Origin: a virus
IMG/VR virus record: IMGVR_UViG_3300037140_000076
Span: 48,375-112,374 of that record
DNA: 64,000 bases
Direction: 5' to 3' (one strand)
Shown here: one piece after another, positions 11,949 to 58,624 of the stretch
How positions within the stretch are numbered: position 1 is the first letter of the stretch
How the letters are laid out: every line of letters begins with the position of its first letter
Position numbers and translations under genes: made by a program
Notes under the pieces: generated by a model
What the model saw: only the letters and a program-made list of their open reading frames with translations
Databases searched by the model: none
What the model was told of the DNA's origin: nothing

Positions 11949-11973
11949 AATACTTATTTCTAAGGTTTGTCAG

Positions 11974-12331
11974 TGGACTAGTCGGAATTCGAATCCGAGT
12001 CTTCAATACAAAAAATCTTACTTTTCTTTATAGGTTTAGGATAACGATTTAATCTTACTACCGTTCCAAAAGAATTTTCCTACCCTCCACCACTCGGTTT
12101 AGGTCCGAGAACCATGCTACACCAGCCATTTTCTGTTTCAAGGTATGACTACCCATGCATCAAGCTAATTCCAGTTCTTCACTGAAAACCGAAGCGAGTA
12201 TCGCTTCTCCTTCTGCAATACGTTCAGCTTTAGACTTTACGTTTGTTTGTTGCATATTTATTAAGGATGTTATATACTGCATCCACCTAAAATAAAACCT
12301 TTCAATACTGAATCAATAGCCTTTCTAGCCC
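11974..12331 (-). ncRNA. ssrA: tmRNA
   Basis: 5' GGGCUAG pairs with 3' CUAGUCC-A, including the G3:U70 Ala identity pair; T-arm UUCGAAU near the 3' end; 358 nt; internal ORF 12255-12160 MQQTNVKSKAERIAEGEAILASVFSEELELA*. Confidence 0.9.
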
Positions 12332-26474: not shown

Positions 26475-26543
26475 ACAAAACTCAGTGATAATTATCATTG
26501 GATTTAGTGATAAAAATAAAATTATAACAAAATTTTGTTATAA
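26470..26543. promoter_or_regulatory. three copies of the 22-bp palindromic operator TTAT(A/C)ACAAAATTTTGT(T/G)ATAA
   Basis: Perfect palindrome at 26522-26543 just upstream of -33 TTTG; degenerate copies at 26470 and 26492. Confidence 0.75.
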
Positions 26544-26545
26544 AA

Positions 26546-26773: not shown

Positions 26774-26851
26774 ATGCAACAATTTACAATGATAGTGGAT
26801 AATAGAATTAATGCCGGAGGCGAAAATCGTCTTTCAGGGATTCTATTGTAA
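26774..26851 (+). CDS. leader peptide 1 of tRNA array 1 (MQQFTMIVDNRINAGGENRLSGILL)
   Basis: A-rich TIR; codons 6-17 match all ten downstream tRNAs; overlaps the antiterminator strand. Confidence 0.8.
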   Translation: MQQFTMIVDNRINAGGENRLSGILL

Positions 26852-27640: not shown

Positions 27641-28437
27641 CATTCACAGAAGAAGGGCATTCGTATGAGTCAATTCCAGCCGTTTCCTGGACTTCTGTGA
27701 CTAAATTAATAGAAAGCTACTGCAATCCTTTTGATGAGGAGGATCAAGCTCTGAGGAGTTCACAGAATATGAATTCAAAATGGTTTGGGATGGACCCAGT
27801 GGAGATTATCAAACTCTGGAAGGCTGAAAACCTTCGTTCCACTGATGCCGGAACCTGGGTCCACAACAAATGGGAAAAAAATGTTAGCTCTTTAAAGCAC
27901 AAAGAGTGGGAAGGAAAGAAATTAAAAGTTTTTCCTGGAAAATGGGAAGGAGAAACTAAAATTGCACCGGCCCAGGAACTTGAAGAAGGGGTTTACCCTG
28001 AACATATTATATATAATGAAAATCTTCAGGTGTGTGGACAGGCTGATATTGTTAATGTTAGGGATGGTTTTGTAGATGTAATTGATTATAAGACTAGTAA
28101 GGAGATTGAGGACCACTCTTATGGATTCAAGTATGGAAATGCGAGTATGATGTTGGAACCGGTGAACCATTTAGAGGATTGCAACCTTTCTCATTATGTT
28201 CTTCAGCTTGGTATCTATATGAGGCTCATCCTGTTAAAGAATCCGGCTCTGAAACCTGGTAAACTGATCCTCATTCATGTAAAAATGGATATTAATGAGC
28301 TTGATCAATATGGATTTCCTATCCTAAAAAGGACAAAAGAAAACGGATATAAAATTAAAAGAACAAAAAATTATAATATAAAATACATTGAGAATGAAGT
28401 TCGTAGTGTATTAAAAGATCATTATTTAAAATTGTAG
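27631..28437 (+). CDS. PD-(D/E)XK exonuclease
   Basis: SVTKLI, GTWVH, PEH...CGQAD...IDYKT, YVLQLGIY. Confidence 0.8.
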   Translation: MFLTFTEEGHSYESIPAVSWTSVTKLIESYCNPFDEEDQALRSSQNMNSKWFGMDPVEIIKLWKAENLRSTDAGTWVHNKWEKNVSSLKHKEWEGKKLKVFPGKWEGETKIAPAQELEEGVYPEHIIYNENLQVCGQADIVNVRDGFVDVIDYKTSKEIEDHSYGFKYGNASMMLEPVNHLEDCNLSHYVLQLGIYMRLILLKNPALKPGKLILIHVKMDINELDQYGFPILKRTKENGYKIKRTKNYNIKYIENEVRSVLKDHYLKL

Positions 28438-28582
28438 GGTGGCGAAATTGGCAGACGCAACCGCTTGTCTCGCGGTCGTGGATAAGGAAATAGATAGTAG
28501 ATAGACGGTTGACCAGCAATGAATTAACTTCTTTTGTCTCCTGTTGAATCCCCACTTAATGGTTCGAATCCATTTTCTACAG
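28433..28582 (+). ncRNA. tRNA-like RNA with ~81-nt variable region (loop centre GTC)
   Basis: Acceptor TGTAGGG/TTCTACA, Leu-type D loop, ACCGC-TTGTCTC-GCGGT, T arm AATGG-TTCGAAT-CCATT. Confidence 0.7.
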
Positions 28583-28702
28583 CAATTGATCAGTATGTTG
28601 CAGATAGAATCTGATCTGGCCCTACGCACTGCAAAGCGTTGAGGGAGCGCGTCCGGGATAAGTAGACCTGGTAAGACTACGCTAGGAAAAAGTCTTTTAT
28701 AT

Positions 28703-28888: not shown

Positions 28889-28962
28889 GCGCCATACGCA
28901 TTCCGGTAGTGTGCCTGGCTTCCAACCAGGATGAGTCGGTTCGATTCCGACATGACGCACCA
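28889..28962 (+). tRNA. tRNA-Gly(TCC)
   Basis: CCTGG-CT-TCC-AA-CCAGG; CCA encoded. Confidence 0.88.
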
Positions 28963-29042
28963 GGACAAGACGGAGGTTCGAATCCTCCCGGCTATGTATC
29001 CGTAATTGGGTGACGCAGTAGTTTAGTGGTTAGAATATGTCC
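28963..29042 (+). ncRNA. circularly permuted tRNA-like (YrlA-type) RNA
   Basis: GGACA/TGTCC closing stem; T arm GGAGG-TTCGAAT-CCTCC comes before the D arm TAGTTTAGTGGTTAGAATA. Confidence 0.7.
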
Positions 29043-29045
29043 AAT

Positions 29046-29476: not shown

Positions 29477-29519
29477 CTCTGTTCATATTTTTTCTCTGTT
29501 CACGAAAAGTGAACAACCT

Positions 29520-29590
29520 GGGCCAGATCCCGAAGGCAGGGCATCTCGCTTGCACCGAGAATGAAGCGGGTTCGATTCCCCATGTGTCCA
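29520..29590 (+). tRNA. tRNA-Ala(TGC), divergent
   Basis: TCTCG-CT-TGC-AC-CGAGA; G3:U70 present; mismatches in acceptor and T stems. Confidence 0.7.
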
Positions 29591-29631
29591 CTTTTTTCCC
29601 AAATTTGGAAATGTGAAAAATTTTCACTATA

Positions 29632-30990: not shown

Positions 30991-31684
30991 TACAATAGTT
31001 CTTACTGCAATATATCATGAGTTTTGGGGAACAGAACAGTTTAGAAAATCTGTTGAGAGAGTAGGTCTGGATGTTTATAATGTATTTCCTGAAAACACCC
31101 CATATAGAGGAAACGGTTTTATTTATCAATACTTTTACAAAGCCTTTTTAGATCTTAAAGATAAATATAAAACAGTTATTTATTCGGATGGAGCAGATAC
31201 AGTTTTTCAAAAAGCATTTGTACCACCAACTGATAGAATAATTTATTCTGTTGAAAAAGCAATATGGCCTCCTGCCGAACGCTTCCCACATCTTAAAGTT
31301 CTTTATGATAACTATTATAACAAACACTGGCGTAGAAATGATTGGCCTTGGAAATATTTGAATGGGGGAAACTGGTGTGGTCCCATTCATCTATTAATTG
31401 AATGGTATGAACGATACGGATTGAAAGATTTGACAGGAGATATAAATGGTCAGAGAGAGCAAGCCGAAGCTTTTATGAAAGCAGATGCAGATGGTTTTCC
31501 AATTAAGTTCGATCATAATTGCGAATATTTTCAGACAACAGGTTTTGAAAATCAAGGAGATTTCAGTTTAGCGGAAGATGGAAAATCAATTATAAATAAT
31601 TTAACAGGGACGATTCCTTGCGTTCTTCATGGGAACGGGCGAACTCCGATGAATGCCATATATAATAGATATAACGTACAATAA
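30980..31684 (+). CDS. PLOD/LH3-type glycosyltransferase
   Basis: YSDGADT, YSVEKAIWP, KYLNGGNWCG, EYFQ, LHGNG. Confidence 0.75.
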   Translation: MINDTIVLTAIYHEFWGTEQFRKSVERVGLDVYNVFPENTPYRGNGFIYQYFYKAFLDLKDKYKTVIYSDGADTVFQKAFVPPTDRIIYSVEKAIWPPAERFPHLKVLYDNYYNKHWRRNDWPWKYLNGGNWCGPIHLLIEWYERYGLKDLTGDINGQREQAEAFMKADADGFPIKFDHNCEYFQTTGFENQGDFSLAEDGKSIINNLTGTIPCVLHGNGRTPMNAIYNRYNVQ

Positions 31685-31685
31685 A

Positions 31686-32741
31686 ATGACGAACAAAGAA
31701 AAAGCAAAACGACAAAGAGACCGAAGAAAAACCTATTCATTGTCAAAAAGAAAAAAAATAGCAAAGCAGGTGAAGGCGTATGCCGAAGCAAATAAAGAAA
31801 GACTTTCTTTTTTAAAAGCAGAAATGTATAGAATAAATAGAGAGTATATTTTACACTTCAAAGCAACACATCCTTGTGTAATTTGTGGACAGACTGATCC
31901 TTTCGTTTTAGACTTTGACCATTTAGATCCTTCTAAAAAGGAAGCAACGGTTGCAAATATGTTAGGTAGAACAGCTTCTCTAGAAAAAATAAAAAAAGAG
32001 ATAGCCAAATGCCAGATATTGTGTGCTAATTGTCATAGAAGAAAACATTTTTATGAAAAGAACAAATACAATTTTAAACAAAATATTGTTTTAATCGGAG
32101 GCGGTAATCATGTTCAGTACTGTATTGATATAATTAAAAAACAAAACAAATACAATATTGTCGGTATCATTGATTCAGTTAAAGATATTGGAGAAATTGT
32201 ATACGATTATCCTGTCATAGGAAGACAAAAAAATATTGTTGAACTTTCAAAACAATATGGGTTTGAAAGTGGTATAATTACTGTTGGAGATAATTGGGCA
32301 AGATATAAAATATATGGAGATATTATTGAGGCTTATCCATCATTTATGTTTGTAAACGCAATTCATCCTTCAGTATTAATAGGCAATAATGTAAAGATAG
32401 GTAAAGGAGTAATAGCAATGGCGGGTGTAATATTTAATCCTGGAGCAAATATTGGAGATTTTACTTTCTTTGCAACAGGTGCGCAAGTAGAACACGATTG
32501 TATAATAGAACATTTTGCAAGTGTATCAGCGGGGTCTATTCTTGGTGGTCATGTTCATATAAAAGAGTTTGCTGCTATTACTCTAGGGGTAACAATAATT
32601 GATCGTCTTACTATTGGATGGAATACAGTAATTGGATCAGGGTCTCTTGTAACAAAAGATATAGATGATAATGTGTTGGCATATGGAAGCCCTGCGAAAG
32701 TAATAAGAATAAGACAACAAGGAGAAAGATTTTTAAAATAA
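31686..32741 (+). CDS. HNH nuclease fused in-frame to a NeuD/PglD-like sugar acetyltransferase
   Basis: N-terminal CVICG..LDFDH..CANCHRRK; C-terminal IVLIGGGNH, hexapeptide repeats, AYGSPAKVIR. Confidence 0.8.
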   Translation: MTNKEKAKRQRDRRKTYSLSKRKKIAKQVKAYAEANKERLSFLKAEMYRINREYILHFKATHPCVICGQTDPFVLDFDHLDPSKKEATVANMLGRTASLEKIKKEIAKCQILCANCHRRKHFYEKNKYNFKQNIVLIGGGNHVQYCIDIIKKQNKYNIVGIIDSVKDIGEIVYDYPVIGRQKNIVELSKQYGFESGIITVGDNWARYKIYGDIIEAYPSFMFVNAIHPSVLIGNNVKIGKGVIAMAGVIFNPGANIGDFTFFATGAQVEHDCIIEHFASVSAGSILGGHVHIKEFAAITLGVTIIDRLTIGWNTVIGSGSLVTKDIDDNVLAYGSPAKVIRIRQQGERFLK

Positions 32742-33547: not shown

Positions 33548-33794
33548 TATGCCAATATTAATTTCTCGAAAACAGAATATAGTTCGATCATATACTTTTG
33601 AACTTAATCCAATAGAAACTCAAAAATTTGAAGATGAGATTTTGAGTAATTTTTGGGATGCAACCAAAATTCCTGAAGACGAAAGAGCAGAGTTCAAAGT
33701 AACGTATACTATAGATTTTTATAAAAAACCAGTAGAAGAAGAACCCCAACCCCAGGATGGGTCACATATTATACTAGGATTACCTTCTATCTAA
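33548..33794 (+). CDS. hypothetical protein
   Basis: ORF track 33486-33794; likely start MPIL. Confidence 0.5.
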
Positions 33795-33796
33795 TA

Positions 33797-33828
33797 TTTG
33801 GTAATTTCAATTATTTTACATATATTTG
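33797..33828 (+). promoter_or_regulatory. Bacteroidota promoter of array 2 (-33 TTTG, -7 TATATTTG), 4 nt before the leader ATG
   Basis: Consensus match. Confidence 0.75.
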
Positions 33829-33832
33829 TTTT

Positions 33833-33901
33833 ATGAAACATATCAATTCATATTATTCACTGAGTCTACTCTTATCGTCTTACGATACGGACCTGGGATA
33901 A
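33833..33901 (+). CDS. leader peptide 2 of tRNA array 2 (MKHINSYYSLSLLLSSYDTDLG)
   Basis: 12 consecutive Ser/Tyr/Leu codons upstream of Leu/Ser/Tyr tRNAs. Confidence 0.85.
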   Translation: MKHINSYYSLSLLLSSYDTDLG

Positions 33902-33936
33902 TATTGAATTAACCGAACTGATTCGGAAAAGTTATT

Positions 33937-33970
33937 ACCCTGGGATTTTTATCCTGGGGTTTTTTGTTTT
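33937..33970 (+). terminator. attenuator terminator 2
   Basis: ACCCTGGGAT/ATCCTGGGGT plus T-run abutting tRNA-Leu. Confidence 0.85.
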
Positions 33971-34044
33971 AGGGATGTGCTGCAATTGGTAGATAGCTAC
34001 GCCTCAAAAGCGCATGTGTGTGGGTTCGAATCCCTCCTTCCCTA
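33971..34044 (+). tRNA. tRNA-Leu(CAA), short variable arm
   Basis: Loop CT-CAA-AA; TTCGAAT T loop. Confidence 0.78.
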
Positions 34045-34073
34045 CTAAAAGCGTTACTAACGCTTTTCAGTAT

Positions 34074-34153
34074 ACCTTCGTGACTTATACGAAATGGCAC
34101 AGTTACCGGTCTTAGAAACCGGGTCCTTGTGGGTTCGACTCCCACCGAAGGTA
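34074..34153 (+). tRNA. tRNA-Leu(TAG), enlarged D loop, short variable arm
   Basis: CCGGT-CT-TAG-AA-ACCGG. Confidence 0.82.
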
Positions 34154-34190
34154 CAATGTTTCCCTTATTAATGAGGTAAACAATTTATAA

Positions 34191-34270
34191 CCCTCTGTGG
34201 CTTATAGAAATAGGTACACTTAACCGACTTAAAATCGGAGCTTGTCATGGTTCGAATCCATGCAGGGGGA
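34191..34270 (+). tRNA. tRNA-Leu(TAA), enlarged D loop, short variable arm
   Basis: CCGA-CT-TAA-AA-TCGG. Confidence 0.8.
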
Positions 34271-34275
34271 CATAC

Positions 34276-34362
34276 GGAAGGCCCCAGTTGACTGAGGTAC
34301 ACGGTCCTGAACACCGCTAGGAGGCTAATACCCTTGTAAGAGTTGGACTCTCTTGCTTTCCG
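34276..34362 (+). tRNA. tRNA-Ser(TGA)
   Basis: CGGT-CC-TGA-AC-ACCG; long V arm; G73. Confidence 0.8.
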
Positions 34363-34480
34363 CTTTATATCTTTTAACATATAAAATCAGTAATATATTA
34401 CCGATTATATCTAATAACGTATAATAAGGTAGAATATTTTGCAACAATCGGCAATTTATTACCGATTTTGCCGAAAGTTT

Positions 34481-34564
34481 GGAAAGTTAATTAGCAAGAG
34501 CTAACCCTCCCCGCTAAGGAGTGGGACCGGGAAACTGGTTGTGGTTCGTGTCCACAACTTTCCG
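34481..34564 (+). tRNA. tRNA-Ser(GCT)
   Basis: CTCC-CC-GCT-AA-GGAG; long V arm; G73. Confidence 0.82.
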
Positions 34565-34612
34565 CAAGAGGAAACATTTGGAAGTTTCCTCTTTATTTCG
34601 TATGTTTGTAAA

Positions 34613-35059
34613 ATGAAAAAGATATGTTCAAAATGCAATATTGAAAAAGAAGTACAAGATTTCAATAAACGCACAAACAGTAAAGACGGATATGATCCAA
34701 GATGTAGAACTTGTACAAAAGAACGAGATGTTTTAAGATATACTAAAAATCCCAAACTTTTTAAAGAAAGGGCAAAAGTTAAAAACACTTTTATAAGAGA
34801 TAGAAACAGACAATTTTTAATTGAATATTTAATTGATAAATCATGTATTGATTGTGGAGAAACCGATGCTGTTGTATTGGAGTTCGATCATATAGAACCT
34901 TCAACAAAAATTGATTGTATTTCAGAAATGATTCCACGATCAAGTATTGAAAATATTAAAACTGAATTAAATAAATGTGAAATAAGATGTGCAAATTGTC
35001 ATAGAAGAAAAACAGCTAAACAATTTGGCTGGAAAAGAAAACACCTGGAATTATGTTAA
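34613..35059 (+). CDS. HNH endonuclease
   Basis: KICSKC..CRTC; CIDCGE...LEFDH...CANCHRRKT; start MKKI 4 nt after TATGTTTG. Confidence 0.85.
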   Translation: MKKICSKCNIEKEVQDFNKRTNSKDGYDPRCRTCTKERDVLRYTKNPKLFKERAKVKNTFIRDRNRQFLIEYLIDKSCIDCGETDAVVLEFDHIEPSTKIDCISEMIPRSSIENIKTELNKCEIRCANCHRRKTAKQFGWKRKHLELC

Positions 35060-35083
35060 GATTAGATAAAACTTTACTCTTAT

Positions 35084-35154
35084 TGATTGAATACCAGGGC
35101 AGTAGGCACTGTCTGTAAAACAGAGGCACGTAGGTTCGAGTCCTACTCAGTCAA
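35084..35154 (+). tRNA. tRNA-Tyr(GTA), short variable arm
   Basis: CTGT-CT-GTA-AA-ACAG; GTAGG-TTCGAGT-CCTAC. Confidence 0.78.
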
Positions 35155-35158
35155 CAAA

Positions 35159-35213
35159 TTATAACTGAATTTTGTTATAAATTTGGAAATTTGAAAAAGT
35201 ATTATTAAGTTTG
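35159..35213 (+). promoter_or_regulatory. 22-bp palindromic operator plus promoter of array 3 (-33 TTTG, -7 TAAGTTTG)
   Basis: TTATAACTGAATTTTGTTATAA followed by ATTTGG ... TAAGTTTG. Confidence 0.72.
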
Positions 35214-35224
35214 CAGTTAAGATT

Positions 35225-35317
35225 ATGAAACAGACTATCAACACGCGATTTTTTTGGCATCAACCGACCCCTCAAGGTCCAAGGGCTAAAGTTATGCGTG
35301 ATACAGATATAGGTTAA
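35225..35317 (+). CDS. leader peptide 3 of tRNA array 3 (MKQTINTRFFWHQPTPQGPRAKVMRDTDIG)
   Basis: Codons 7-19 TRFFWHQPTPQGP cover all seven amino acids of the downstream tRNAs. Confidence 0.85.
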   Translation: MKQTINTRFFWHQPTPQGPRAKVMRDTDIG

Positions 35318-35345
35318 ATAATCTCTTTTCTGCTTGCAACTTTTC

Positions 35346-35381
35346 AACCCTTGATTTTTCTAAACCGAGGGTTTTTTATTT
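35346..35381 (+). terminator. attenuator terminator 3
   Basis: AACCCTTGATTT/AAACCGAGGGTT plus T-run abutting tRNA-Pro. Confidence 0.82.
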
Positions 35382-35457
35382 CTAGTAATGGAGGAGTCCG
35401 GCCATCCTCGCGTGCCCTGGAAGCATGAGAACCCAGGTTCAAATCCTGGTTACTAGA
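35382..35457 (+). tRNA. tRNA-Pro(TGG)
   Basis: CGTGC-CC-TGG-AA-GCATG. Confidence 0.85.
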
Positions 35458-35462
35458 CAAAT

Positions 35463-35534
35463 TCCTCTTAAGCTTTAATGGTGAAGCTCCAGTTTTGTAA
35501 ACTGGTGAATGGGGATCGTTACCTCAAAGAGGAT
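35463..35534 (+). tRNA. tRNA-Thr(TGT)
   Basis: CCAGT-TT-TGT-AA-ACTGG. Confidence 0.85.
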
Positions 35535-35618
35535 CGAAGCCGGTTACCAAAATGTAAAAAAGCCGCCAGAACGTGTCTGGTTACTTGTTAAGACAAGTTG
35601 TAAAAAAGTTTGGGTTAT

Positions 35619-35693
35619 GTGTCTTGGGCAGGTCTGGTGACATTGCATCCGTTTGAAGAACGGACTAACAAGGTTCGATTCCTTGAGGATACG
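35619..35693 (+). tRNA. tRNA-Phe(GAA)
   Basis: TCCGT-TT-GAA-GA-ACGGA. Confidence 0.82.
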
Positions 35694-35698
35694 CTTAT

Positions 35699-35770
35699 TC
35701 CTGGATCGTATAACGTGTAGTACAGCCGTCTCTGACACGGTTAGCAATTGTTCGACTCAGTTTCCGGGAA
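35699..35770 (+). tRNA. tRNA-Gln(CTG)
   Basis: GCCGT-CT-CTG-AC-ACGGT. Confidence 0.85.
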
Positions 35771-35775
35771 CTTAA

Positions 35776-35846
35776 ACCCCTTTAGCATAAAGGTAATGCT
35801 GGTGGCCTTGACCCACCAGAAGTTCGGTCGGTACGAGCAGGGGGTT
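35776..35846 (+). tRNA. tRNA-Gln(TTG)
   Basis: GGTGG-CC-TTG-AC-CCACC; atypical T loop. Confidence 0.78.
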
Positions 35847-35847
35847 C

Positions 35848-35918
35848 TGTGAATCTAGTTCAATGGTAGAACGGCTGGCTGTGAACCAGGCAATTAGGGT
35901 TCGATCCCCGGTTTCACA
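35848..35918 (+). tRNA. tRNA-His(GTG)
   Basis: CTGG-CT-GTG-AA-CCAG. Confidence 0.78.
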
Positions 35919-35964
35919 CAACGCATGAATTTTTAATAAAAATTCATGCAAAATATTAACATAA

Positions 35965-36036
35965 CCTCCTTTCGTTCAACGAATAGGACCTCTGGCAACG
36001 AACCAGAAAATAAAGGTTTGATTCCTTTAGGGAGGT
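35965..36036 (+). tRNA. tRNA-Arg(ACG)
   Basis: TCTGG-CA-ACG-AA-CCAGA. Confidence 0.8.
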
Positions 36037-36041
36037 CAATT

Positions 36042-36110
36042 ACGTGCCAGGCTAAGGCAGCCAAGCAAACTCCAAATCTGTAGGAGATAGTTCGATTCTA
36101 TCGGTGCGTG
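36042..36110 (+). tRNA. tRNA-Trp(CCA)
   Basis: Loop CT-CCA-AA; GATAG-TTCGATT-CTATC; G73. Confidence 0.8.
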
Positions 36111-36591
36111 CAAATTATAACAAAAAGCAATTATAATTACTTTTTGTGATAATATTCACACAAAATTTTGTGATAAATGTTGGAAGTGTCAAAAGTATTG
36201 TTTTACTTTGCACCCAACTTTCACCAGTAAAGGACACGCCACCACGAAAAAACAATGATATGAAGTGGCGCAACTACGTCTTGGCTTTTTTTGGGGGAAC
36301 CTACGGAGGGGGGCCTCACCCCTCTCATATTATTGATTTATAATACGTTAAATGATTACCGGGTAATTTACTGGGCCTGGTAAAGCTTATAATTTGGTTA
36401 TGTGCTTTGAATTACATATATTTACAGAGGTAAAAAGCACAAAAAATATAAAAAGAGATTCAAGGGGATCATTTAAGATATTACCATCACAAAAATTCCT
36501 ATCTGGTTATAATCAAAAAACGTAATCTGCGTCCATTTAAAACGTTTAAGCAGATGGCAGTGAATTAGGAAACACTGTTGCCCGGTGGTAT

Positions 36592-36620
36592 AAAAGATGC
36601 AATTTATTGCATCTTTTTTT
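36592..36620 (+). terminator. intrinsic terminator
   Basis: AAAAGATGCAAT/ATTGCATCTTTT plus T-run. Confidence 0.7.
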
Positions 36621-39753: not shown

Positions 39754-41856
39754 ATGAGTATAATAACCAGTCCGGAGTTTTTTATTAATATAAAAAAGAT
39801 ACCGGATAAAGCTTCCAAAGAATATCTGCCCTTCTTCAGGGCAGAAATGAATAAAGTAAAACAGGGTGTAACCATTGCTGGAGTAAGAATTCCAGGATGG
39901 TTATATTGGCATATAAACCACTGGGTAATTGATATAGATGTTCCAGTACAAGGCACAAATATTAATTATGTTGAGCGTAGACCATCACATCCTTTTTTAA
40001 GGGATAATGATTGGATTATTGCAGAACATATTGAAAGAGCAGAAAGTTTAAAAAAAGGTGTATTACTTCTTGGTACTCGTCAGCTTGGTAAAAGCGAAAT
40101 AGGAGCTTCTTATAACGGGAGAAGAGGTATTGCTTTTGAAAATAGTCAAAATGTTATTGCTGGTCTTTCTGATCCGGATTTAAAACTTCTTCTTGGTAAG
40201 TTGGATAGAGGGTTTACAAATCTTCATCCCTATTTTAAACCAATAAAAATAATAAACGATCCTAAGAAAGAAATTATTCTTGGATATAAAGACCCCCAGG
40301 GAGAAAGAGTTAAATATTCTGAATTCCTAATTCGAAATTTAGATTCAGGAAAGAATACTGAAAACTTAGCGGGTCCTACTACTTCTTCACTTACTTTGGA
40401 TGAGTGTGGTAAAGGAGATTTCCTTGAAGCCTTCATTGCTGCTAAACCTGCTCTTGAAACCGCTTATGGTTGGAGAGGTATGCCTTTATTTATAGGGACC
40501 TCTGGTAGCTTTGATAAGGCTGAGGATCTTCAAAGGTTCCGGGAAAATCTTGACACTTATAATTTTATTGAAGTTGAACTTAAGGATGAAAAAAAACAGG
40601 ATATATATTTTATTCCAGGTTGGATGTCATCTCGTGCGAAAAGAAAAAAAATAAGATTATCTACTTATAAAAAAGTACCCAAAGGAAGCGAACTTGATAC
40701 TATTGCTATTCATGTTGTAGAAAACCCTGAAGAAGAAATACAAAGAATTTTAGATTATAGAGAGTCATTAAAAGTTGCTGGAGAAATAACATTGATGAAG
40801 AAAGAGACAATGTATTATCCTTTAAATGAAGAGGAATTATTTTTAATTGATGATAGTGATAATATATTTTCTGATGTAAAAGAAATATGTAAAGCTCATT
40901 TACTTTATTTGGAAACAATTGAAGTGAGTGAAGAATATGGATGGATGACAAGAGACGAAAATGGTAAACCAAAATTCGTTCCAACTAAGAATGCTTTTCC
41001 TATTAAAGATTTTCCTGCTGGAGAACATGAAGATAAAGATGCCCCTATTATTATATGGTCCCATCCTATGGAAGGCCAAGAATTCGGGATTTTGCATGTA
41101 GGTGGAATTGACCCTTATAACCAGGATGAATCATTTTATTCCCCTTCCCTGGGAACCCTATATATTTATCGTAGGACATATGATCCTTTAAAAGGCAATC
41201 ATCAAGAATCATTTGTTGCTTCATATTCTGCTCGTACAAAGACTATATCTAAATGGAGGGAGCAAGTAAGACTTCTTTTAGAATATTACGGAGCTACTGC
41301 TTTACCGGAAAATGAAGAGCCGGGTCTTATTCGTTGGTTTGATGAAAAACATATTGGACATTATCTTGAAGACGGTCTTGATCTAGCAAAGGAAATAAAC
41401 CCCAATACCACCAGTAATAGAAATAAAGGATTATCAGCTACTACAGCAAATATAAGATATGGAAATGGTCTTTTAAAATCTCATATTAACGAAGATCTGG
41501 TTATGGGCCAGGACCCTTTAAGCGGGGAGAATATAATAAAGAAAGGAGTAATCCGGATAAAGGATAAGGTTTTATTAAAAGAGGTAATTGCTTATACCCC
41601 TGCCATGAGCATTAAAAGTAGGGCAGGGACCTCTTCAAATGCAAGGACTAAAAAGAAAGCTACCAACGTTGACCGGATTGTAGGGGCAAGACATGCTCTG
41701 ATCCTGGCAAAATTAAAAGATAAATATTTTCCCCTTGCTAAGATAAAGAACCCCCTCTCTACAAATAAGCCTGAAAAAAAGGCTATTAAAAGCCCTTTTA
41801 CAGGTATAAACAGTCCTTTCGGATCTCGAAGATTTCCCTTCGGTGGAAAATTATAA
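39754..41856 (+). CDS. terL: terminase large subunit
   Basis: GTRQLGKS, LDECGK, IGTSG, nuclease VGGIDPY; upstream of portal. Confidence 0.88.
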   Translation: MSIITSPEFFINIKKIPDKASKEYLPFFRAEMNKVKQGVTIAGVRIPGWLYWHINHWVIDIDVPVQGTNINYVERRPSHPFLRDNDWIIAEHIERAESLKKGVLLLGTRQLGKSEIGASYNGRRGIAFENSQNVIAGLSDPDLKLLLGKLDRGFTNLHPYFKPIKIINDPKKEIILGYKDPQGERVKYSEFLIRNLDSGKNTENLAGPTTSSLTLDECGKGDFLEAFIAAKPALETAYGWRGMPLFIGTSGSFDKAEDLQRFRENLDTYNFIEVELKDEKKQDIYFIPGWMSSRAKRKKIRLSTYKKVPKGSELDTIAIHVVENPEEEIQRILDYRESLKVAGEITLMKKETMYYPLNEEELFLIDDSDNIFSDVKEICKAHLLYLETIEVSEEYGWMTRDENGKPKFVPTKNAFPIKDFPAGEHEDKDAPIIIWSHPMEGQEFGILHVGGIDPYNQDESFYSPSLGTLYIYRRTYDPLKGNHQESFVASYSARTKTISKWREQVRLLLEYYGATALPENEEPGLIRWFDEKHIGHYLEDGLDLAKEINPNTTSNRNKGLSATTANIRYGNGLLKSHINEDLVMGQDPLSGENIIKKGVIRIKDKVLLKEVIAYTPAMSIKSRAGTSSNARTKKKATNVDRIVGARHALILAKLKDKYFPLAKIKNPLSTNKPEKKAIKSPFTGINSPFGSRRFPFGGKL

Positions 41857-41894
41857 CAAAATTTAGTGATAATTATAACAAAATTTTGTGATAA
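41851..41894. promoter_or_regulatory. two tandem 22-bp palindromic operators upstream of portal
   Basis: TTATAACAAAATTTAGTGATAA + TTATAACAAAATTTTGTGATAA. Confidence 0.75.
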
Positions 41895-41961
41895 TTTGTT
41901 ATAATTTAAAAATAATTGGTAATTTTGTAGTTACTTTAATTATAATTTGTTATAACTCAAT

Positions 41962-58522: not shown

Positions 58523-58616
58523 TTATAACAAAATTTTGTGATAATTTTCGCATTTAAGAAAATATTCCATAATTTTGATCATTCCTGATCAAATTTATCA
58601 CAAAATTTTGTTATAA
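58523..58616. promoter_or_regulatory. two 22-bp palindromic operators
   Basis: 58523-58544 and 58595-58616. Confidence 0.75.
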
Positions 58617-58624
58617 TTTTTATT

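Follow-up and report, generated by a model that had tools for sequence, protein, structure and literature searches.

Why should a phage place a short open reading frame with an unbroken run of serine, leucine and tyrosine codons, followed by a transcription terminator, directly ahead of tRNA genes for the same three amino acids? The locus lies in a genome of 112,374 bp (35% G+C), the final 64 kb of which form the window, that is, the whole 64,000-nucleotide stretch analysed here. Genes for a large terminase, portal, major head protein and DNA polymerase mark this genome as that of a tailed phage, and its sequence is present in public peat and permafrost metagenome runs; among the public runs listed as containing it, none was an RNA run. 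The tRNA genes of the window, as called by ARAGORN, lie between 26.9 and 36.1 kb, all on the + strand, and the genome contains three leader/array units: the leader examined here (leader 2) has sister units at 26774-26851 and 35225-35317, where leaders 1 and 3 precede the genome's other two tRNA arrays. A first-pass annotation had read leader 2 as a leader-peptide attenuator with a protector, an antiterminator and a terminator before Leu, Ser and Tyr tRNAs, and this core reading gained strong comparative support in our analysis. We consider it likely, from the features of the sequence, that the element is a ribosome-mediated (leader-peptide) transcription attenuator which controls the phage tRNA array and feeds back on tRNA supply. 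Because a Ser/Leu/Tyr mini-gene is set between a promoter and a switchable stop, ahead of the tRNAs, slow reading of these codons by ribosomes is probably the one condition under which the phage makes its Leu, Ser and Tyr tRNAs.

Promoter, leader frame and tRNA array

Behind a gene that ends at 33794, the promoter is directly succeeded by the leader ORF, the terminator and the first tRNA (Table 1). As is characteristic of attenuators, an intrinsic terminator lies between the leader ORF and the first tRNA, with the promoter upstream of both; it ends 10 nt ahead of tRNA-Leu(CAA), and since the U tract reaches the first base of this tRNA, there is no space for a second promoter, so transcription of the array has to pass the terminator. 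A second region with an HNH-like ORF (31653-32741) and several genes part array 1 from leader 2, in this lineage only.

Table 1. Positions of the leader, its RNA helices and the tRNA array in the window, and of the corresponding leaders in four relatives
Feature	Position	Strand	Remarks
-33 element TTTG	33797-33800	+	Bacteroidota-type sigma-A promoter; read from the sequence
-7 box TATATTTG	33821-33828	+	TAnnTTTG type; read from the sequence
Leader ORF	33833-33901	+	22 codons and TAA stop (33899-33901)
Region 1, 5' strand of protector	33845-33858	+	Lies within the run; minimum-energy fold
Regulatory run	33848-33883	+	12 codons, Ser/Leu/Tyr only; codons 6-17 of leader ORF
Region 2	33892-33910	+	33896-33910 pairs with region 1; 33892-33903 (including stop codon) pairs with region 3
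Small spacer hairpin inside antiterminator	33913-33926	+	-3.5 kcal/mol; not kept in relatives
Region 3, 3' strand of antiterminator	33933-33944	+	Covers 8 of 10 nt of terminator 5' arm
Intrinsic terminator hairpin	33937-33960	+	10-bp stem, 4-nt loop, -14.3 kcal/mol
U tract	33961-33970	+	Ends at first base of tRNA-Leu(CAA)
tRNA-Leu(CAA)	33971-34045	+	75 nt, short variable region; ARAGORN, Rfam 37.7 bits
tRNA-Leu(UAG)-like	34074-34154	+	Relaxed ARAGORN; partial Rfam 21.4 bits, anticodon loop CUUAGAA
tRNA-Leu(UAA)-like	34191-34271	+	Paralogue of Leu(UAG)-like; partial Rfam 21.0 bits, loop CUUAAAA
tRNA-Ser(UGA)-like	34276-34362	+	Long variable arm; full-length alignment to Ser(UGA) genes of four relatives
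tRNA-Ser(GCU)-like	34481-34565	+	Long variable arm; relaxed ARAGORN
Array-splitting insertion	34566-35059	+	Terminator-like hairpin (34566-34593), own promoter, HNH endonuclease gene (34613-35059)
tRNA-Tyr(GUA)	35084-35155	+	72 nt; ARAGORN; Rfam 27.4 bits, below family cut-off of 29
L009 leader	L009:5181-5249		Ser/Leu/Tyr run within the 9-11-codon range of the four relatives
L005 leader	L005:2854-2928		Run within the same range
Lbo-JY46 leader	L013:5391-5471		Run within the same range
L014 leader	L014:5196-5279		Run within the same range

The promoter has the layout of a Bacteroidota sigma-A promoter, with a spacer of 20 nt between TTTG and the -7 box, and the same TTTGG..TAnnTTTG arrangement stands ahead of the leader in four relatives and ahead of other genes in the window phage. 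In Flavobacterium the sigma-A box TAnnTTTG spans -12 to -5 (PMC9723704), and the predicted +1 is therefore 33833, the A of the ATG. The ATG begins 4 nt past the final G of the -7 box, just as the first-pass annotation had it, and this spacing is repeated at two protein genes, namely the HNH gene (34613) and, on the opposite strand, a gene for a protein of 117 aa. The accompanying proposal of a leaderless mRNA is thus consistent with the published promoter geometry and with two genes of the phage itself; a leaderless state is not essential, though, since in one relative a leader of about 75 nt precedes the ATG. Leaderless mRNAs are a minority in Bacteroidota (5.5% in F. psychrophilum), and in B. 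thetaiotaomicron 3.7% of 5' UTRs are shorter than 10 nt.

Codons 6-17 of the leader proved to match the annotated list exactly, including its ten distinct Ser/Leu/Tyr codons and the absence of TTG. When all six frames of the 112,374-bp genome were searched, this run of 12 was the longest, followed by one of 11 codons on the opposite strand, within a gene; Ser, Leu and Tyr account for 23.8% of all six-frame codons, and none of 200 genomes randomised with an order-2 Markov model contained a run of at least 12. The locus thus carries a cluster of regulatory codons in a short 5' leader ORF, as attenuators do, and about 90 nt separate the run from the genome's sole Leu/Ser/Tyr tRNA block downstream.

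That the block consists of Leu, Ser and Tyr tRNAs of class II, as annotated, holds in part. Only Leu(CAA) is a clean tRNA call; Tyr is borderline, with a score under the family cut-off, Leu(UAG), Leu(UAA) and Ser(GCU) appear in relaxed or partial searches, and Ser(UGA), which no tRNA finder called in the window, is recognised solely through its orthologues. The class-II label fits by amino-acid identity but not by shape, as only the two Ser tRNAs are class II, with short variable regions in Leu(CAA), Leu(UAG), Leu(UAA) and Tyr; in the relatives the Tyr tRNA measures 83-86 nt with a long variable arm, versus 72 nt in the window. Since relaxed ARAGORN anticodon calls were unstable (those for the Leu(UAA)-like gene were inconsistent), the odd tRNAs were typed by Rfam partial alignments and orthologues instead. 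In both extra Leu-like genes the acceptor stem is perfect (7 bp by eye in the Leu(UAG)-like gene), the D stem has 3 bp and the D loop 15 nt, and a short variable region stands in place of a long arm. The anticodon loop of the Ser(UGA)-like gene carries C33 in the alignment to its orthologues, and the Ser(GCU)-like gene appears to have C33 too, instead of U. Four of the six array tRNAs are non-canonical and their tRNA function is putative; the odd features may reflect decay, or else an escape from nucleases that target tRNAs.

The insertion that splits the array sits between Ser(GCU) and Tyr, and its HNH promoter is of the leaderless type. It is missing from the arrays of L009, L005 and L014, and Tyr is split off in the window phage alone, where it may be transcribed from the HNH promoter and not solely via the attenuator.

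Several further features surround the arrays. Between the called tRNAs lie tRNA-like pieces with T-arm and acceptor-like segments (28437-28700, 28960-29045 and 29480-29600), one of which is a possible tRNA split by an insert of about 70 nt and another an Ala(UGC)-like gene found at the relaxed threshold only. A 23-bp palindrome of the type TTATAAC AAAATTTT GTTATAA occurs at six sites versus none expected by chance (26522-26544, 35159-35181, 41851-41895 and 58523-58617), with copies immediately ahead of the leader 1 and leader 3 promoters but none at that of leader 2. The palindrome resembles an operator bound by a dimeric regulator, and if it is one, two of the three arrays would have a second control layer. 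Past array 3, at 36115-36620, a promoter-like region with a palindrome variant is followed by a 27-codon ORF (36260-36343) that overlies a G+C-rich hairpin (36305-36326) and by about 250 nt free of genes, up to a strong terminator (36592-36617). The region may represent a non-coding RNA, or else a fourth leader that has no tRNAs.

Alternative helices and ribosome position

The minimum-energy fold of the free leader RNA consists of the protector helix, then the small hairpin, then the terminator. The protector proposed in the first-pass annotation was thus recovered in this fold, and its region, 33845-33910, reaches -15.7 kcal/mol (p=0.0135 versus shuffles). When the run was masked, 33892-33903 paired with 33933-33944, in agreement with the antiterminator placed earlier at 33892-902 and 33934-43. 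With the enclosed hairpin the antiterminator has -12.6 kcal/mol, and the duplex alone has -11.0 versus a shuffle mean of -6.2; in the window it is modest, having 11 pairs that include two G-U (p=0.04 versus shuffles). The relations between these helices are those of an attenuator: the 1:2 helix sequesters the antiterminator strand, beating shuffles in four of five lineages with L014 marginal (p=0.054), and in folding the antiterminator overlaps the terminator 5' arm, its other strand being freed by a stall.

For the switch itself, the transcript was cut before the terminator 3' arm and a 30-nt ribosome mask was moved along it codon by codon. With the A site at codons 2-15, the terminator 5' arm was paired upstream with a probability of about 0.7, and from codon 16 to the stop this fell to 0.27-0.43. 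The partner of the arm under the mask was 33892-33903, and within the run the stall codons that left the antiterminator strand free were 6-15. At equilibrium the full-length leader kept its terminator at every ribosome position in four of the five lineages, the window phage among them; in L014 a stall at codons 7-14 left the terminator a probability of 0.00-0.01, and ribosome positions between codon 15 and the stop gave it one of 0.91-0.96. Because the switch was visible in L014 only, equilibrium folding of the complete leader was dropped as a switch test. Since the terminator is retained at equilibrium, the switch would have to be kinetic, and folding cannot prove kinetics; the switch of the trp operon likewise acts kinetically.

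On these helices the following course of events can be proposed. Transcription would start at or beside the ATG, and a ribosome would translate the 22-codon leader as the polymerase nears the terminator. Were charged Leu, Ser and Tyr tRNAs plentiful, the ribosome would reach the stop codon inside region 2, which would then either lie under the ribosome or pair again with region 1; with region 2 unavailable, the terminator would form and transcription would stop 10 nt before the first tRNA. If any Leu, Ser or Tyr tRNA were scarce, the ribosome would instead stall in codons 6-15 and hold region 1, region 2 would pair with the terminator 5' arm once that arm is made, and past the blocked terminator the polymerase would enter the Leu and Ser (ancestrally also Tyr) tRNA genes. 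Since the product of read-through would be the molecule whose shortage caused the stall, this would constitute negative feedback on tRNA supply. For three relatives, whose stop codon is too far downstream for a terminating ribosome to cover region 2, default termination would depend on the protector re-forming.

The window also encodes a phage tmRNA with a 26-residue tag (11973-12331, - strand; ARAGORN), adjoining a tRNA-Thr. A ribosome-rescue tmRNA deserves mention where control of tRNAs would rely on stalled ribosomes.

Leader and array in related phages

At 33700-36200 the DNA contigs of four peat or permafrost runs showed no differing letters, so population variation could not be used here. 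The terminase has about 200 homologues in metagenomes. Pattern scans gave the loci L001/L004, L009, L005, L014 and L007/L069, and Leptolyngbya phage Lbo-JY46 (L013, PP438436.1) and Cellulophaga phages came from a protein search of GenBank phages; GTDB genome contigs scanned with the terminase alignment gave no match, and blastn of the region against GenBank phages gave tRNA-sized matches only. The L001/L004 leader is identical to that of the window. In the clade with 44-45% terminase identity most loci are without tRNA arrays near the terminase. A leader-terminator unit ahead of Leu and Ser (and Tyr) tRNAs was found in L009, L005, L014 and Lbo-JY46, at 41-64% terminase identity, and all four share the promoter type and a terminator abutting Leu tRNAs, followed by Ser and then, except in Lbo-JY46, Tyr. 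Because the four close lineages are related to one another, they do not count as fully independent cases.

Across these leaders the nucleotides have diverged while the codon content has been kept. In pairwise comparison the changed run codons comprised 36 synonymous changes, 31 from one Ser/Leu/Tyr codon to another and 18 that leave the set, so that 79% of changed codons stayed within Ser/Leu/Tyr versus 33% for single-base neighbours. The terminator arms vary by lineage, and every ORF finds in its own terminator the best partner for its 3' part, this assignment being the best of 120 permutations; over the five lineages the shuffle p values were 0.001-0.06 for the antiterminator and 0.0015-0.05 for the protector. 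A functional small peptide encoded by the ORF, whose location before the tRNAs would be incidental, might account for the core motif YYSLSL, which is repeated in four lineages, but the C-terminal half is kept as the pairing partner of its own terminator and not as a peptide, length and ends vary, and sister leaders in the same genomes have a common layout with different sequences. We find that reading hardly credible. It is also very unlikely that the leader is an untranslated structured RNA with a leaky terminator, which would damp or process the tRNA precursor and leave the Ser/Leu/Tyr reading as a by-product of base-pairing: the leader frame, beginning with an ATG in promoter-proximal position, is the sole frame open in all five lineages and contains the genome's longest Ser/Leu/Tyr run, 79% of the codon changes remain within the set, and the paralogous leaders differ strongly in composition, each fitting its own array, even though the TCA TAT TAT of the run forms the protector strand and is hence constrained as RNA too. 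The leader of the proposed attenuator would presumably be translated.

The fit between leaders and arrays was measured in five genomes with three units each (the window phage, L009, Lbo-JY46, L014 and Cellulophaga phage phi17:2), the content score being the share of codons 2-17 that name amino acids of the unit's own array. This score was 0.44-0.88, with one exception, a phi17:2 unit whose annotated start is doubtful, and in all five genomes the true assignment of leaders to arrays was the best of six permutations. Rearranged arrays are accompanied by matching leaders. In L014 the Asn and Asp tRNAs have moved to array 3, and its leader 3 contains Asn and Asp codons; in Lbo-JY46 Cys tRNAs stand in array 1, and its leader 1 has six Cys codons. 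In phi17:2, where Leu tRNAs are grouped with those for Pro, Glu, Gln, His and Arg, the leader is rich in Q, R, L, H, E and P, and where Tyr and Ser tRNAs are grouped with those for Asn, Trp and Phe, it is rich in N, Y, S, W and F. Such tracking of array content by leader content would be difficult to account for if the ORFs were not read as codons.

Judged from these comparisons, the codon-to-tRNA match seems robust at the level of amino acids. The further suggestion of the first-pass annotation, that the many synonymous codons point to sensing of individual isoacceptors, was not established: TTG is absent from the run although Leu(CAA) heads the array, Lbo-JY46 retains Tyr and AGY codons while lacking tRNAs for Tyr and Ser(GCU), and the excess in codon diversity is only marginal in the window (10 distinct codons versus 7.5 expected, p=0.034) and not significant in the four relatives, with about 0.07 when combined by hand.

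Which shortage would such a leader report? A stalled ribosome cannot distinguish an uncharged from a missing tRNA pool, and the architecture equals that of amino-acid operons, as would be expected of a classical sensor of amino-acid starvation (low Leu, Ser or Tyr) whose signal is used otherwise, for example for timing; we nevertheless hold this unlikely, because behind the terminator there are only tRNA genes and the later HNH insertion, extra tRNA gives no relief from amino-acid starvation, and across genomes the content of the leader tracks the tRNA set rather than any metabolic gene. For an attenuator that feeds back on tRNA supply, the signal in infected cells would presumably be a shortage of tRNA and not of amino acids, and it might arise from host tRNA decay, anticodon nucleases or a shifted codon demand.

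Two relatives show further peculiarities. In Lbo-JY46, whose host is recorded as cyanobacterial, TTTG, about 20 nt and TAnnTTTG precede all three leaders (L013 1790-1830, 5350-5390 and 6075-6115); either the motif of these Bacteroidota-type promoters is phage-specific or the host assignment deserves a check. In L001, a relative with 95% identity, array 1 begins with two inserted Lys tRNAs, and in leader 1 (L001:734-829 versus window 26774-26851) the 3' half and the terminator have been replaced, a Lys codon now being included.

Relation to known attenuators and biological meaning

The closest counterparts in architecture are the attenuators of enterobacterial amino-acid operons (trpL, hisL, leuL, pheL and the multivalent thrL and ilvL). 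Like the phage leader, they carry regulatory codons clustered within a short ORF, form helices 1:2, 2:3 and 3:4 that exclude one another, have an intrinsic terminator before the first regulated gene, and show a similar order of energies in which the terminator is stabler than the antiterminator; in the thr and ilvGMEDA attenuators several amino acids are sensed together, as proposed here. Unlike these systems, the phage element would control tRNAs and not enzymes, and its output would be the sensed molecule; it is phage-borne, has a Bacteroidota-type promoter, is probably leaderless and has no sequence similarity to them. The element works like a member of the attenuator family outside its known scope, since classical attenuators precede amino-acid biosynthesis or synthetase genes, whereas tRNA genes and an HNH insertion follow here. 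In an Rfam scan no curated leader family (Leu, His, Thr, Trp and others) or riboswitch reached its gathering score, and the chance-level matches to the L10 leader (20 bits) and the greA leader (15 bits) were far below the cut-offs.

Two known systems regulate components of translation in related ways. The pheST attenuator of E. coli (pheM leader) also places a component of the translation apparatus under leader-peptide attenuation; it is chromosomal and controls a synthetase, for a single amino acid, by decoding its own codons. T-box riboswitches, too, tie the state of the tRNA pool to terminator read-through before translation-related genes, but in their case the RNA itself binds the uncharged tRNA and no ribosome is required; at the phage locus no T-box match came from Rfam scans at E up to 10, and no specifier features were found. 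The nearest functional precedent is the trn tRNA array of Anabaena sp. PCC 7120, which is silent by default and induced on impaired translation, control being exerted at the promoter by the repressor TrcR (PMC8421152, PMC10272220). Like the phage locus, it is an accessory tRNA array with an adjoining homing endonuclease gene, but its control by TrcR differs, and the words leader, attenuator and terminator are absent from the 2021 paper (PMC8421152). Full-text literature searches yielded no account of leader-peptide attenuation of tRNA genes.

More tentatively, the three leaders could form a codon-resolved panel that monitors the loss of particular host tRNA species during infection, caused for example by host anticodon nucleases or by phage-induced tRNA decay, and switches on only the matching replacement block; the device would then be a self-tuning counter-defence with isoacceptor resolution, widespread in tRNA-rich phages whose hosts span several phyla. 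Because the device is present in the cultured phages phi17:2 and Lbo-JY46, it is directly testable, and its natural, modular design may lend itself to sensing the availability of tRNAs.

Phage tRNA genes are usually viewed as constitutive cargo that serves codon usage or counters host tRNA decay and tRNA-cleaving defences. If our reading is true, trp-type attenuation would extend to RNA genes and to cases where the sensed molecule directly regulates its own supply, and the locus would offer one of the rare examples in which ribosome-coupled attenuation uses signals of Bacteroidota type that are possibly leaderless. With an attenuator for each array, the phage would measure decoding speed by codon class and make its tRNAs on demand.
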